DNA of 64,000 bases, taken from Candidatus Aminicenantes bacterium UBA6228 (GTDB taxonomy: Bacteria; Acidobacteriota; Aminicenantia; Aminicenantales; Saccharicenantaceae). How positions within the stretch are numbered: the first letter of the stretch is position 1; each line of letters begins with the position of its first letter. This document shows, piece by piece, positions 3,364-59,043 of this stretch. Below the pieces are notes generated by a model, which saw nothing but the letters and a program-made list of their open reading frames with translations, searched no databases and was not told where the DNA came from. The stretch lies in NCBI GenBank assembly GCA_002441005.1, contig DJWO01000014.1, positions 88,662 to 152,661 on the forward strand, in the 5' to 3' direction. The position numbers and the translations under genes were made by a program.

Positions 3364-5049
3364 TTATTTAGCTGATTTTTTCGGCAAACAGGGCATTTTA
3401 ATCTTATTCCGGCGGGCACAGGCGATAGCCTCTTCATAACCGGCATCAGCATGGCGGACAACACCAATCCCGGGATCAACGGTCAGGACACGTTCGAGAC
3501 GCTTAGCCATGGCGGCTGAACCGTCGGCCACGATCACCATGCCAGCATGAATAGACAGCCCAATTCCGACTCCGCCGCCATGATGAACCGACACCCAGGA
3601 AGCCCCATTGACCGCATTAAGCAGAGCATTAAGGATCGGCCAGTCAGCAATCGCATCCGAACCATCTTTCATCTTTTCCGTCTCCCGGTTAGGCGAAGCA
3701 ACTGAACCGGTATCTAAATGATCCCGGCCAATAACTATCGGGGCGCTTATTTTTCCCTTCTTAACAAGGGTATTTATTACATCGCCGAAAAGCGCTCTTT
3801 CTCCATAGCCAAGCCAGCAGAGACGGGCCGGTAGCCCCTGAAATTTGACCTTCTGCTGAGCATTTTTGATCCACCTGGCTAAAGACTCATCTTCAGGAAA
3901 CATCTTGAGCACGGCCTCATCGGTGGCATAAATGTCTTCCGGCTTGCCAGACAGGGCCACCCAGCGAAAAGGACCTTTCCCCAAGCAAAAAAGCGGCCTG
4001 ATATATTCTTGAACAAAACCGGGAATGTCAAAAGCTTTTTCCACACCTGCTTTTTGGGCCTGACCGCGGAGGTTGTTGCCATAATCAAAAGTTCTGGCCC
4101 CTCTTTTCTGAAGTTCGAGCATAGCCTCAACGTGAGCTGCCATTGATTCGTAGGAGCGGCGGATATAATCCTGTGGATTATTTTTTCTCAGCTCGAGAGC
4201 TTCCTCATAAGGCAACCCGCGAGGCACATAGCCATTGAGTTCGTCATGAGCTGAGGTTTGATCTGTCAGAACATCGGGCGTAATTCCTCTCTTAACCAGC
4301 TCAGGCAAAAGATCAGCAGCATTAGCCAGAAGGGCAATAGATAACGGCTGGCCTTTTTTACAGGCTTCGTTAGCCATTTTCAAAGCTTCATCCAAGCTCT
4401 CAGTCATGGTGTCAACATATTTAGTATCAAGACGGCGCTTGATTCTGACTGGATCAACTTCAGCAATAATGGCCACTCCCCCGTTCATGGTGACGGCCAG
4501 CGGCTGGGCACCACCCATGCCACCCAGGCCGGCGGTGACCACCAGTCTGCCCTTGAGCGATCCGCCAAAATGCTTCCTGGCAGCGGCGGCTAAGGTTTCA
4601 AAAGTGCCCTGTAGAATACCCTGAGTCCCAATATAGATCCAGCTGCCGGCGGTCATCTGGCCATACATGGTCAGGCCCAGAGCTTCCAGCCGCCGGAATT
4701 CATCCCAGGTAGCCCACTTTGGCACCAGCATAGCATTAGAAATCAAGACTCGCGGGGCTTCCAGGTGGGTTTTAAAGATACCCACAGGTTTGCCCGACTG
4801 AACGAGCAGAGTTTCATCGTTCTCGAGTTTTTTTAAGCTGCTGACAATGGCTCGAAAGCAATCCCAGTTACGAGCAGCTTTTCCGGTACCGCCATAAACA
4901 ATTAGTTCCTGTGGCTTTTCGGCCACCTCCGGATCGAGGTTATTCATCAGCATCCGCCTAGCCGCTTCTTGTGACCAGCCCCGGCAATGCAGACTGTTGC
5001 CGCGCGGAGCCCGGACAGGTTTATAAGCTATCTTTTCTTTTTCAGCCAT
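3364..5049 (-). CDS. hutU: Urocanate hydratase
   Basis: [68 protein letters not shown]. Confidence 0.97.
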
Positions 5050-54766: not shown

Positions 54767-55173
54767 TTTTAACCTCCTTATTGTAGCTATTTTTAGATTA
54801 TCAATTTTAGCTGAATCAGGCAACAGCCATCTTCCCAACAGACATGACCCAAATTGAGATTAAGGCGTTATAATTTTAAGAACTGCAAATGAAAGGAATC
54901 TAAGAACTTACAAAAATAAAGCTGGAGTTGTCGGCACCTGGCTTCAATGGGTCAGAGTTAGTCGGGGAAAAAGTTAGAGCCATGATTGCCAGGAAGTTTT
55001 TCAGAAAAGCAGGACGCTTGAATTGCTTCAGTTTTTGGCGCTGGCTCTAAGAAAATTTTAATGGTGGTGTCTACTGGACGATGTCAGAACTTTCTTCCAA
55101 CAAAATCCTGACGCTGACTGACGCAAAATTGCGAAGCATTTTTGCACTGCTATCTAAATTCCTAAAATTTATG

Positions 55174-55267
55174 AGTATAACGTTTCCAGCATATACGACG
55201 TTTTGCGATAGCAAAATGTCCCGAATGGCAAGGGCGTAAGCCCGTAGCATATATGCTGTGTTATGTG
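55174..55267 (-). other. attC site (cassette 2)
   Basis: Minus strand CACATAAC-A-CAGCATATA ... TATATGCTG-GAAAC-GTTATACT; 94-bp imperfect palindrome 17 bp after a stop codon. Confidence 0.85.
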
Positions 55268-55284
55268 ATGTCTGCGTGCCAATT

Positions 55285-55890
55285 TCAACTTTTTCTAAAT
55301 AAGTCAAGTGATGGTTCAATTAACTTCTTGCGGATAGTTTCACTATTATTAATTTCAAACAAATTATTCTCTACTAATTCTCCCTGAATTTTTATATATG
55401 CGTCCTCATAATCAATTTTTTCTATATTTTTGAAAATCTTATCGTCATTATATTCAAGATGACCCGTTACATTTTCAAATTTGCCAACCCATTTAACTTG
55501 AGGTTTCTTATGAATGTTATATAATACCCCTGCATAGACTTTCGGTTCATTAATATTTTTATCCCTAAGTATTATCCTTAAATATAAGATTTTTAAATTA
55601 TCGTCTATCTCTGTTATAGTTTGACCACGTTCGACCCTGGTTTTGTCCTTAGGAACAAAAAATACAGCGAATTTTCTCAACAGCCACAAATTGACATTAG
55701 TTGACTCTAATCCTGTTGAACTTCTTGCACTTATACCATAACCAGCAGGTCTTCCAATAATGAATTTCTCCTCTTCTTCATGCAAGATACCTTCTATTTC
55801 TTTAATCAAATAGGAAACCTCAAGATACAATTTTTGAATAAAATCAAACGCTAAATTTGTCTGCTCGATAATTTCACTTTTGTTAATCAT
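55285..55890 (-). CDS. Hypothetical cassette protein (201 aa)
   Basis: Start MINKSE at 55890 (GGAG RBS), overlapping the upstream stop by 8 nt; AT-rich codons; no motif recognised. Confidence 0.75.
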   Translation of the reverse strand: MINKSEIIEQTNLAFDFIQKLYLEVSYLIKEIEGILHEEEEKFIIGRPAGYGISARSSTGLESTNVNLWLLRKFAVFFVPKDKTRVERGQTITEIDDNLKILYLRIILRDKNINEPKVYAGVLYNIHKKPQVKWVGKFENVTGHLEYNDDKIFKNIEKIDYEDAYIKIQGELVENNLFEINNSETIRKKLIEPSLDLFRKS

Positions 55891-56722
55891 GGCTCCAGTC
55901 CTCCTTATAAAATATGGGGGGGTCAATATACTTTAACTTCCCTAATTGCAGCAGAGGCATAAATATCTTTTTCTGATTGGTAAGGAAGATTGTTTTCTTC
56001 ACCGGCGTGATCTTTTTTTCAAATAACAGACTTTGCATAAAACCGATAAAGGCGCCACGAAATTTAGCTGTTCTTATCTCAAAGAAAATGGAGACATAGC
56101 TTTTTAGAGAAGCGCTTACGTTATAGAGGTAATTGAGACCTTGAAAATCCCGAAGATTTTTCTTATCCAATAAGTTATATAGATCCAAAGCAAAATCTCG
56201 CTGTTGCTTTTTCATGTTTCTATTACTTTCTAGGACATTATAGAGAAACGAGGAAACTGATTGCCAATTAGTCCATTTAAAACGATGGATAAACTCTGGC
56301 GAGATTATTTTAAATTTATGTTCTTTATAATAATAGTCAGCAGTAATTGCGATTAACCAAAAATCCTTACCATAGTTCTTTGCCTCTAATTTTCCGCCAT
56401 GGATTTCACGTAGTAGTTGGGCTTTGGTTTTTTTAGTCTCCTCGGCGAATCCTGAAAAATATTTAGCTTCTATCAGTAGATAGTAATTCCCAACTATTAT
56501 GACTAAATCTGGTTCAGTATTTTCCTCAAAACGAGGCCAAAATATAAATTCTGCCTCATTAGCTTCCTAGTTAGAGATGTCAAAGCCCAATTTGTTCAAA
56601 TATCCTTTAAGAAAAATTTCTCGGTCTGAATATTTGAAAAAGGAAAAGACATTGGATGTCAGAATATCTTCCATTCTTTCAATTCTAGAAGTCAATTTGC
56701 CATGTAATTCAGCTAAGTACAT
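55883..56722 (-). pseudogene. PD-(D/E)XK nuclease-like cassette gene interrupted by an in-frame TAG at codon 52
   Basis: Single 280-codon frame MYLAELHGKL..EDILTSNVF..SN*EANEAEF..TEPDLVI..LLIEAKY..WTNWQ; TAG at 56567-56569. Confidence 0.8.
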
Positions 56723-56753
56723 TTTATCACCTTTGTGCTATGCACGCAGATTT

Positions 56754-56844
56754 CACATAACGTTCTCAGCATAAAAGAAGTTTTTGCGAAGCAAAAATTT
56801 GGGTGAGTGCCATAAAACACGAACCTTTTATGCTGTGTTATCTG
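56754..56844 (-). other. attC site (cassette 1)
   Basis: Minus strand CAGATAAC-A-CAGCATAAAAG ... CTTTTATGCTG-AGAAC-GTTATGTG; 91 bp, 16 bp after a stop codon; same architecture as the other attC. Confidence 0.85.
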
Positions 56845-56860
56845 TCTGTTTGTCGCCATA

Positions 56861-58216
56861 TTAATCTTTCCTTGGTCTTGCCCAATTGCAATATCTATGA
56901 GTTAGCCTAGCATTTTCAGGTATAGTTTTACCACCAGCCCAATATTGCTTGATATGATCAATTGCTGCATCATCTATATCTTGAATTTTCTGACCGCAAA
57001 TCGCACAGGTAGAATCATTTTTATAAAGTTCTTCCTTTAACTTCAAAGAAAAACAACGAGGTTCTTTTTTTGCAATACCAATTATGTCTTGAAGAGTTAG
57101 TCGCCACTTATCAAATCGTTTTGTTACTGCTTCAACACTACTTGTGGAGAGTTCAATTGCATCTATAAAATCCTGATCATTGGTCATTAGATATATTAAG
57201 GCTTCACGAATTGAATCAAGGTTTTGATAAACTTTGTTTTTGTCTTCTCTCGCAAAAGAATACATCAGAATGTCATATAAAGATGCATTGAATTTTTTTG
57301 GTTCCCAATATCCGTTTCGATTCTTTTCATCACCTTTATAAAATCTCTTAAATGCGTGATTGTCTAACAAGGATTTTATTATAGTAACCGCATTTTTAAA
57401 GGCGTTTTTTAATTCAATGGCGTCCACTTCAGATATATCTTGATATTTCTCCATATCATTGTTAAGAAACTTCCTCATAGGTGGTTTATATTTCAAATAG
57501 GTAAAATGATAAAATGCTGCAAATCTAAGAACAAGTTCTATATCTTTCATCCTCTTGTCAGGCTTTTTAAGTCCTAATAAGTACATAAAATCGGTATCTT
57601 TAGAAAGTTCTTTTAGTAATTTGTTGTATAGTCCCCTGTAGATGCAATTCCTTAATTCTTGATCGTTTAAAGATACTGCCCCTGTATTTAGTCGTTCAAA
57701 TATTTCAAATTTTAAATCAGCCTCTGACTCTCTCCGAAAAGTTATAGTGCGGATCTTACAATATCTTATTTTGTTTTGTAGCTTTCTATCTATCTCTTTA
57801 AACGATTTTCTGTTAAGTTCTGTAAATACTTTCAACCCGGTCAACTTAAAATCTATTCCGTCTGGAAATCGTCCATCTATAAATGAGAAAAAAGCGGTTA
57901 ATCTTTGTTGTCCATCAATGACATATTCTTTTCCATCTTTCTCTTCAGAGAGATAAATTACAGGGAGTGGTATATCCAAAAGTGCTGATTCTATTAGTCT
58001 GCTCGATTTTTTTGCATCCCATACAAAGTGTCTTTGGAAATCAGGCTGTATTATTAGATCTCCATCTTTATATTTCCTATAAAGTGAGTCTATCTCGGGA
58101 TCTCCCTGCTCTGTGTATACTCTTCTCTTTGTTGAAGAGACTTCTATATTCTCAATTTCTTCTTCTAATGGTTGCTCAAATTCGAGTTCGTTTAATTCTT
58201 CTGCTTCTTCATTCAT
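56861..58216 (-). CDS. DUF262 (GmrS/ParB-like) plus C-terminal HNH endonuclease protein
   Basis: IQPDFQRHFVW, VIDGQQRLT, IFERLNTG; CAICGQ..IDHIK..GGKT..NARLTHRYCN; GGAGG RBS. Confidence 0.88.
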   Translation of the reverse strand: MNEEAEELNELEFEQPLEEEIENIEVSSTKRRVYTEQGDPEIDSLYRKYKDGDLIIQPDFQRHFVWDAKKSSRLIESALLDIPLPVIYLSEEKDGKEYVIDGQQRLTAFFSFIDGRFPDGIDFKLTGLKVFTELNRKSFKEIDRKLQNKIRYCKIRTITFRRESEADLKFEIFERLNTGAVSLNDQELRNCIYRGLYNKLLKELSKDTDFMYLLGLKKPDKRMKDIELVLRFAAFYHFTYLKYKPPMRKFLNNDMEKYQDISEVDAIELKNAFKNAVTIIKSLLDNHAFKRFYKGDEKNRNGYWEPKKFNASLYDILMYSFAREDKNKVYQNLDSIREALIYLMTNDQDFIDAIELSTSSVEAVTKRFDKWRLTLQDIIGIAKKEPRCFSLKLKEELYKNDSTCAICGQKIQDIDDAAIDHIKQYWAGGKTIPENARLTHRYCNWARPRKD

Positions 58217-58243
58217 TCTATCACCTCCTTAGGCGACAAATTT

Positions 58244-58303
58244 CATATAACTCGTTTCTATACGAATTGAATGTATATGACCTTTTGGTGCATATTATAC
58301 GAA
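58244..58303 (-). other. attI-like site
   Basis: Minus-strand core GTTATATG (58251-58244) ahead of the first cassette, with no attC palindrome; TATACGAA direct repeats at 58259 and 58296. Confidence 0.6.
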
Positions 58304-58376
58304 CTTAATGTGTAATTATTAATCAAATTACTAATAATAACTTAAATACTTTTTTTTTACCAATTTTTATAGAATT

Positions 58377-58960
58377 ATGCAACAAAAATACTTGGAACAA
58401 ACAAAGCAAGAATTAAGATTAAGAATTTATAGTTTTAAAACTATAAAGGCTTATTTGGGCTGTCTGAGAGAATATTTTGATTTTAAAAAATTTAATTTGG
58501 AAAAAATAGACGAGGAAAATATAAAGCAATTTTTGTTAAATAAACAAAGTAGAAATTATTCTTCACAAACGATAAATCTTTACTTAAATACAATAAATTT
58601 TTCTACCGCGAAGTATTGAAAATTTCTCAAAATATAAATTTAAAATTCGCCAAGCGAAGTAAAAAACTACCGATTGTTCTATCAAGAGAAGAAATTAAAA
58701 ATATCATTGAGGCAATTAGAAATCCAAAACATAAATTGATAATTTCTTTGGCCTACGGCGCCGGATTAAGAATTAGCGAAGTTGTTAATTTAAAAGTAAA
58801 AGACGTTAATTTAGGAGAATTAACTATCCACCTTAAAAACGCTAAAGGCAAAAAGGACAGAATCACTATTTTCCCAGAAAAAATTAAAAATGATCTTCAA
58901 AACTTAATTGCTGGCAAAAACTTAAACGACTATCTTTATGAAAGCGAGCGAGGCGGCTAA
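58377..58960 (+). pseudogene. intI: Integron-type tyrosine integrase, frameshifted and 3'-truncated
   Basis: SAM-like N-terminus (YSFKTIKAY, SSQTINLYLN); frameshift near 58594-58602 (one added base restores FFYREVLK); KKLPIVLSREE, YGAGLRISE, KGKKDR; ends at ESERGG* before the HxxR and Tyr boxes. Confidence 0.85.
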
Positions 58961-58967
58961 TTCAATA

Positions 58968-59043
58968 TGGTGGAGCTGACCGGGCTCGAACCGGCGACCC
59001 CGTGACTGCCAGTCACGTACTCTCCCAACTGAGCTACAGCCCC
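58968..59043 (-). tRNA. tRNA-Ala(GGC)
   Basis: GGGGCTG/CAGCTCC acceptor stem, CGTGA-CTGGCAG-TCACG anticodon arm, TTCGAGC T-loop, encoded CCA. Confidence 0.96.

Follow-up and report, generated by a model that had tools for sequence, protein, structure and literature searches.

Cassette ends pair with each other well beyond the R box in a widespread integron-like family

Why should the first and last ca. 20 nucleotides (nt) of a gene cassette be complementary to each other, when the integron literature ends the recombination site at a 7-bp R box (PMC5027507)? This question was raised by a 64,000-nt stretch of DNA from Candidatus Aminicenantes bacterium UBA6228 (contig DJWO01000014.1, positions 88,662 to 152,661; hereafter the window), which holds a decayed, two-cassette integron-like island beside a tRNA-Ala gene. 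An original prediction, made from the letters of the window, held that each of the two cassettes has self-complementary ends that match the cassette itself rather than its current neighbor. Analysis of these ends and of related cassettes indicated that the extended own-end stem is a general feature of an integron-like family that is widespread and has apparently not been described before.

All four end sequences named in the prediction were found where it had placed them. Cassette 2 starts with GTTATGTGAAATCTGCGTGC (56761-56742, minus strand; start arm GTTATGTGA-AA-TCTGCGTGC) and the complement of its end reads GTTATGTGATGTCTGCGTGC (55260-55279; end arm including R'', minus strand, GCACGCAGA-CA-TCACATAAC). 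These two sequences are identical at 18 of 20 positions, with mismatches at positions 10 and 11. Cassette 1 starts with GTTATATGAAATTTGTCGCC at the attI junction (58251-58232, minus strand; start arm GTTATATG-AAA-TTTGTCGCC) and the complement of its end reads GTTATCTGTCTGTTTGTCGCC (56837-56857; end arm including R'', minus strand, GGCGACAAA-CAGA-CAGATAAC); in this case, identity at 7 of 8 positions is followed by a 3x4 loop and by a further 9 of 9. Direct comparison of the window ends gave no match to the neighboring cassette, in agreement with the predicted own-cassette specificity. In a control of 199,000 start/end pairs, combined at random from different loci within this attC family, identity at 18 or more of 20 positions occurred at a rate of 4e-4, and an exact run of at least 9 after position 12, which both window cassettes have, at a rate of 9.5e-4.

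A pattern based on the attC cores of the two window sites retrieved 118 loci from metagenome-assembled genomes (MAGs) that belong to numerous phyla of bacteria and archaea. A covariance model built on 122 sites found 192 attC sites in these loci, and pairing was analyzed in 63 intervals between adjacent, co-oriented attC sites. At positions 8-22, own ends were identical at 8.1 of 15 positions, as compared to 5.0 for the array neighbor (p = 4e-12) and 4.9 for random partners (p = 6e-17). Own-end identity was still at least 60% at position 17 and 40% at position 20. With all 63 intervals aligned without gaps, the 22-pair stem gave a covariation score of 0.409, against 0.174±0.011 for shuffled controls (0 of 500 reached the observed value) and 0.11-0.13 for slid partners. 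Pairs beyond the R box changed on both sides in 14 of 15 cases, and divergent attC cores showed own-end pairing as well. The extension was therefore present in other cassettes with the same attC type, and the suggestion that it is an attC-family trait was borne out: across the 63 intervals from the 118 loci, pairing reached approximately position 20, was absent with neighbors and random pairs and, as discussed below, is conserved under selection. An artefact of chance or composition would have the small window sample of two cassettes in its favor and nothing else; the random-pair rates and the shuffled controls make it hardly credible.

Nearly identical attC cores (L004-L121) occurred, by MAG label, in many bacterial phyla and in several archaeal orders (ANME-1, Thermoplasmata, Altarchaeum, Nanoarchaeota). 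This broad spread reflects either very wide transfer or the binning of fragments from the candidate phyla radiation (CPR) and from DPANN archaea.

The stem consists of two segments of different character. Positions 1-12 are conserved in sequence, with GTTA-K-N-Y-G-M-A-A-T on the start side and GTTA-K-N-Y-G-M-H-G-T as the complement of the end side. Mismatches are frequent at position 10. At position 11, most cassettes carry an A on the start side and a G on the end side, such that the bottom strand has a T·G wobble where the top strand has an A·C mismatch (U·G in 47 of the 63 rows). Positions 13-20 form a stem of 8-9 bp whose sequence is specific to the cassette and paired within each cassette. 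GC content of these distal arms was 49-55%, as opposed to 33-34% in their flanks. When sites with 22-nt flanks were folded with DNA parameters, the bottom strand of 39 clean cassettes showed a predicted energy of -31.6 kcal/mol for the circle junction and of -21.6 kcal/mol for the array context (Wilcoxon p = 8e-8); relative to the top strand, its fold was more stable by 3.6 kcal/mol. Corresponding values for the window were -37.4 and -19.6 kcal/mol for cassette 2 and -26.1 and -17.7 kcal/mol for cassette 1.

Homologues of both window cassettes were detected elsewhere. A cassette 1 homologue in L044 and L045 showed 76.5% nt identity over positions 1-1427, and a cassette 2 homologue in L104, in which TCTGCGTGC is kept, 84% over positions 1-1581. 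In both comparisons, homology sets in precisely past the G of G|TT, with another attC, in place of attI, as the partner on the upstream side. Past mobility, which the original prediction had derived from the self-matching ends, was thus supported for units cut at G|TT. Relatives of the cassette 1 protein were encoded at 80 metagenome loci; down to approximately 80% identity, many of these loci are cassettes that share its arms. This DUF262-HNH, GmrSD-like cassette was repeatedly the first at attI-type sites of different arrays (L125, L131/L132, L138, L146, L169, and position 58251 of the window). The cassette sequences in L044, a Bacillota MAG, and L045, a Bacteroidales MAG, are identical, which reflects either recent transfer or a single contig that was binned twice.

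Conservation of the arms was evaluated in the cassette 1 lineage. In homologues at 80-86% amino acid (aa) identity, four-fold degenerate sites were saturated and only 32-57% identical to those of the window, while distal arms in this lineage showed 0-2 differences over 18 positions. Binomial p values for arm conservation ranged from 6e-4 to 5e-9 for eight homologues at 80-86% aa identity and was 0.14 for a homologue at 93% identity. L144 and L146 contain the compensatory pair TTCGTCGCC/GGCGACGAA, of which L147 has the start-side change only. Single changes in L147, L135, L136, L138, and L124 all yield G·T on the bottom strand. In L137 and L169, which are degenerate and evidently immobilized copies, the arms are decaying. 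These comparisons indicate that, in the cassette 1 lineage, the arms are under purifying as well as compensatory selection.

These data bear on the idea that the arms are a functionless trace of cassette formation, for example of an attC core that was inserted in, or built from, an inverted repeat downstream of a gene. In the cassette 1 lineage, the attC interior alternates between subtypes of 81 and 87 nt with gene and both arms unchanged (L130, L133, L135, and L145 as compared to window positions 56755-56843). Since core subtypes are swapped while arms stay with the gene, cores and arms have separate histories, which would be in line with such a relic. The cores appear to be exchangeable modules, and neighboring sites that recombine within their conserved L/R segments would account for the switching. 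A neutral relic would, however, be expected to decay, whereas conservation of the arms far exceeds that of four-fold degenerate sites and a compensatory double change is present; the immobilized copies L137 and L169 do show decay of the arms. A purely historical relic is therefore decidedly unlikely. The wider suggestion in the original prediction, that the stem may be a trace of how cassettes form, was not needed to account for these results and stayed compatible with them; what they disfavor is its purely historical version.

A role at the RNA level, in which the 5' and 3' untranslated regions of a cassette transcript pair and thereby alter its stability or translation, would suit the location of the start arm directly upstream of the ribosome-binding site (RBS; an RBS-like motif was found in 56 of 182 starts, at median position 27), and pooled wobble counts are compatible with pairing of the top strand. 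Pairing nevertheless takes in the R box and has the G|TT crossover as its exact starting point. In most cassettes, moreover, the sense strand carries an A·C mismatch at position 11, and all five single changes in the cassette 1 lineage are sense-strand mismatches. We consider such a role very improbable.

The preferred interpretation is that the first and last ca. 20 nt of a cassette are the two strands of the outer stem of its own hairpin, and that this stem likely serves as a clamp that stabilizes the folded site in the excised circle. The G|TT crossover would divide the stem, such that its 3' strand is located at the 5' end of the cassette within the array, where the outer stem would be unpaired. 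Upon excision as a circle, the two strands would become adjacent again and the folded bottom-strand site would have a stem of approximately 20 bp instead of a 7-bp R box. Positions 1-12 are probably the true recombinase-binding arm and positions 13-20 probably a cassette-private clamp. In a free, single-stranded circle, this clamp would keep the binding arm fully duplex, make the hairpin ca. 10 kcal/mol more stable and favor insertion at attI by an Xer-like recombinase, a protein without the IntI insertion that reads extrahelical bases. The interpretation starts from the observed anatomy of the stem, its generality in the family, its own-partner specificity, its selection and the mobility of cassettes with a G|TT breakpoint; action of the stem in an excised single-stranded circle is suggested by its geometry and by work on classical integrons (PMC5027507, PMC7439510, PMC5737091).

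The same arms might instead pair across the gene in a single-stranded array, loop out one cassette and join the flanking attC hairpins to give precise excision, with positions 10-11 as a hinge. The distal 8-9 bp, private to each cassette and located outside the conserved 12-bp arm, and the systematic imperfection of positions 10-11 would be consistent with such a function. R boxes in array context were mismatched at positions 5-7 in over half of the sites, which makes an aid to synapsis conceivable. A 9-bp helix that closes a single-stranded loop of 0.5-3 kb would, however, be thermodynamically marginal, and pairing runs on from position 1 of the R box as it would in one hairpin. Such a function in the array instead of the circle is unlikely.

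Several points weigh against a clamp in the excised circle. An exact distal run of at least 7 was present in 20 of the 39 clean cassettes, i.e., in about half of them, and some of the intervals between adjacent attC sites probably contain undetected attC sites. Wobble pairs outside position 11 and the cassette 1 lineage showed no strand bias (11 on the bottom and 10 on the top strand). A general bottom-strand G·T bias in the stems was dropped on these pooled counts, and the bottom-strand argument is therefore a narrow one, resting on position 11 and the cassette 1 lineage. The single-stranded state of the excised circle in the host organisms was assumed from classical integrons. Finally, the recombinase of the window is dead, so that no activity is possible at the window locus itself.

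With classical attC sites, i.e., those of class 1 integrons and the Vibrio cholerae repeats (VCRs) of Vibrio (PMC5027507), the present sites share an imperfect palindrome R''-L''...L'-R' with AAC/GTT triplets, a G|TT crossover, as a result of which the R'' of a cassette pairs with the bases at that cassette's own start, a spacer left unpaired on one side, and higher stability of the bottom strand. Promoterless cassette arrays adjoining attI are likewise shared with classical integrons. In the sites analyzed here, AAC and GTT were invariant, L stems comprised 9-10 bp, and a 4-nt one-sided bulge separated R and L stems; the predicted folds contained single unpaired bases in some sites, and a consistent pair of extrahelical bases, typically a G and a T at a distance of 6 bp on the bottom strand in attC sites, was not seen. 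As in integrons, attI lies by the recombinase gene, with the first cassette at G|TT, and co-oriented cassettes each end in an attC. The present family differs from classical systems in that own-end pairing extends beyond 7-bp R boxes to approximately position 20, and to approximately position 30 in a native CPR array. It further differs by a conserved T·G at position 11, a cassette-private, GC-rich clamp, and a recombinase without the IntI insertion.

As a small control, comprising six cassettes from one array, own-end pairing was determined in the class 1 array L123. It covered 8 positions in estX and cmlA1 and 12 in psp, aadA2, aadA1, and qacL, which indicated that the textbook value of 7 bp is an underestimate. 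The description of the window ends as reaching far beyond a 7-bp R box thus held with respect to pairing up to approximately position 20 and was less apt in its point of reference, since these class 1 cassettes already pair over 8-12 positions. The 12 positions of class 1 cassettes equal the conserved arm found here, while the further 8-9 bp set the present family apart.

Archaeal integrons and clusters of attC sites lacking integron-integrases (CALINs) have been reported (PMC9668308), and the attC family described here occurred in many bacterial phyla and also in MAGs with labels such as Methanophagales, Thermoplasmata, and Altarchaeum, a distribution that fits cross-domain spread of cassettes. 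That report is silent on complementarity extending past the R box, and the motifs of the family were absent from those of its supplements that were examined (PMC9668308). Neither own-end pairing beyond the R box nor CPR integrons of this kind were found to be described in the integron literature that is accessible without subscription.

The recombinase gene of the window (58377..58960, plus strand) is an Xer-like pseudogene located directly against tRNA-Ala(GGC). It carries a frameshift near 58594-58619 (sequencing run X9 has an additional A after 58594) and its product ends after ...ESERGG, with loss of approximately 77 C-terminal residues, among them the catalytic motifs. Fragments of the protein scored equally on integron-integrase and XerA-type models, with TIGR02249 below its cut-off and NF040815 above. 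The closest intact relatives, identified with the frameshift read through, are proteins of 270-271 aa with 84-88% identity, and those with a named source are from Patescibacteria. In these proteins, ESERGG leads straight into KLTERT...HSLRHSFATHLL...YTQV, without an IntI-type insertion. The intact relatives thus lack the additional domain of the IntI clade, and the window copy is cut off before that region. Recombinases by the related arrays L095 and L088 have 25+6+10 residues fewer than IntI1. Judged by these sequences, the system is best classified as integron-like with an Xer-type recombinase, rather than a classical IntI.

Xer-type recombination on folded single-stranded DNA is known for the attP of CTX phage, which is used by XerCD at dif. 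In that system, a hairpin stands in for a duplex site with full-length binding arms, the recombinase that uses it has no special hairpin-reading domains, and the partner site is double-stranded. Unlike CTX attP, the hairpin described here belongs to arrayed gene cassettes and its arm is split by the crossover, and use of folded DNA by the 271-aa recombinase is only proposed.

The attI-type junction of the window (G58251|TT, minus strand) is located 126 nt from the recombinase start codon. Its sequence, CATTCAATTCGTATAGAAACGAG|TTA, is identical in the window and in the native Parcubacteria locus L210, and recombinase and array are divergent in both. In the first cassette of L210, the arms comprise 14 bp, followed by an internal loop and a further 9 bp. 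At some loci (L095, positions 3577-3600; L088; L169), the recombinase is co-directional with the array and an attI motif, GTTCGGATAT(N5-6)AG|TT, directly follows its stop codon; this attI differs from that of the divergent layout in the window and L210.

Both window cassettes are co-oriented on the minus strand, each with an attC at its end. Cassette 1 (58250-56761) encodes a 451-aa protein (56861..58216) with Pfam matches to GmrSD_N (DUF262) and HNH domains. Its attC1 core (R''-L''...L'-R'; 56755..56843) is of the 81-nt subtype and was supported by a score of 95.1 bits with covariance model R1 and by predicted folds. The end arm of cassette 1 begins 3 nt past the stop codon and the start arm stops just before the RBS, such that the arms occupy the gap between the open reading frame (ORF) and the recombination site. 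The coding part of cassette 2 (56760-55181) comprises two ORFs (55285..56722): ORF A (55883-56722), with an in-frame TAG at 56567-56569, and ORF B (55285-55890), neither of which gave a Pfam match. Its attC2 core (55175..55266), an 84-nt variant of the 87-nt subtype, scored 77 bits with the same model and was also supported by predicted folds.

The low-GC island (55085..58946) has a GC content of 33%, as compared to ca. 48% for the genome, and its right end abuts tRNA-Ala(GGC) (58968..59043, minus strand). Contigs of run X5, from a different study, spanned both island junctions with zero differences. The island is therefore real, and a chimeric assembly of a CPR fragment in a genome of 48% GC was ruled out. 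An island-free joint (55084|58947) was seen in one contig of groundwater run X12, in which one side covers only 21 nt, which makes this observation a weak one. The island may be located within the tRNA-Ala 3' end, of which a short copy (ATGGTGG) is found near 55068-55077. Runs X9 and X12 have CAG in place of the TAG codon of cassette 2 (56567-56569, minus strand); stop-codon recoding was thereby ruled out in favor of a nonsense mutation. With a frameshifted and truncated recombinase and a nonsense codon in cassette 2, the island in the window is decaying.

An Rfam search, in which no attC family is represented, returned the tRNA as sole match. An exact-pattern search of the genome to which the window belongs yielded the two window sites and one degenerate site, and the covariance model added three weak, solitary, partly degenerate attC-like sites (G000, C14:2920-2999, C5:30572-30657, and C11:52061-52148) that could not be delimited by arm pairing. 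Sites of this attC family were present in only 1 of 40 related genomes.

Pairing of a cassette start with its own end provides a simple computational rule by which cassettes, including solitary ones, can be delimited. The constancy of arms during exchange of cores permits tracing of cassette lineages, and arm/core exchange offers a handle on the long-standing question how genes acquire recombination sites. The anatomy of the stem also hints at how synthetic structure-specific recombination sites could be designed. For the family itself, which is very widespread among environmental cassettes, the functional site of recombination would grow by ca. 13 bp per side, consisting of a conserved arm and a private clamp, and this design is linked to recombinases without the domain that is held to define integron integrases. 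As a tentative possibility, Patescibacteria and, by transfer, many bacteria and archaea might have a parallel or ancestral integron, in which a plain Xer-like recombinase, unable to read extrahelical bases, needs a fully duplex, clamped 12-bp arm and the clamp possibly also acts as an address for excision in the single-stranded array.

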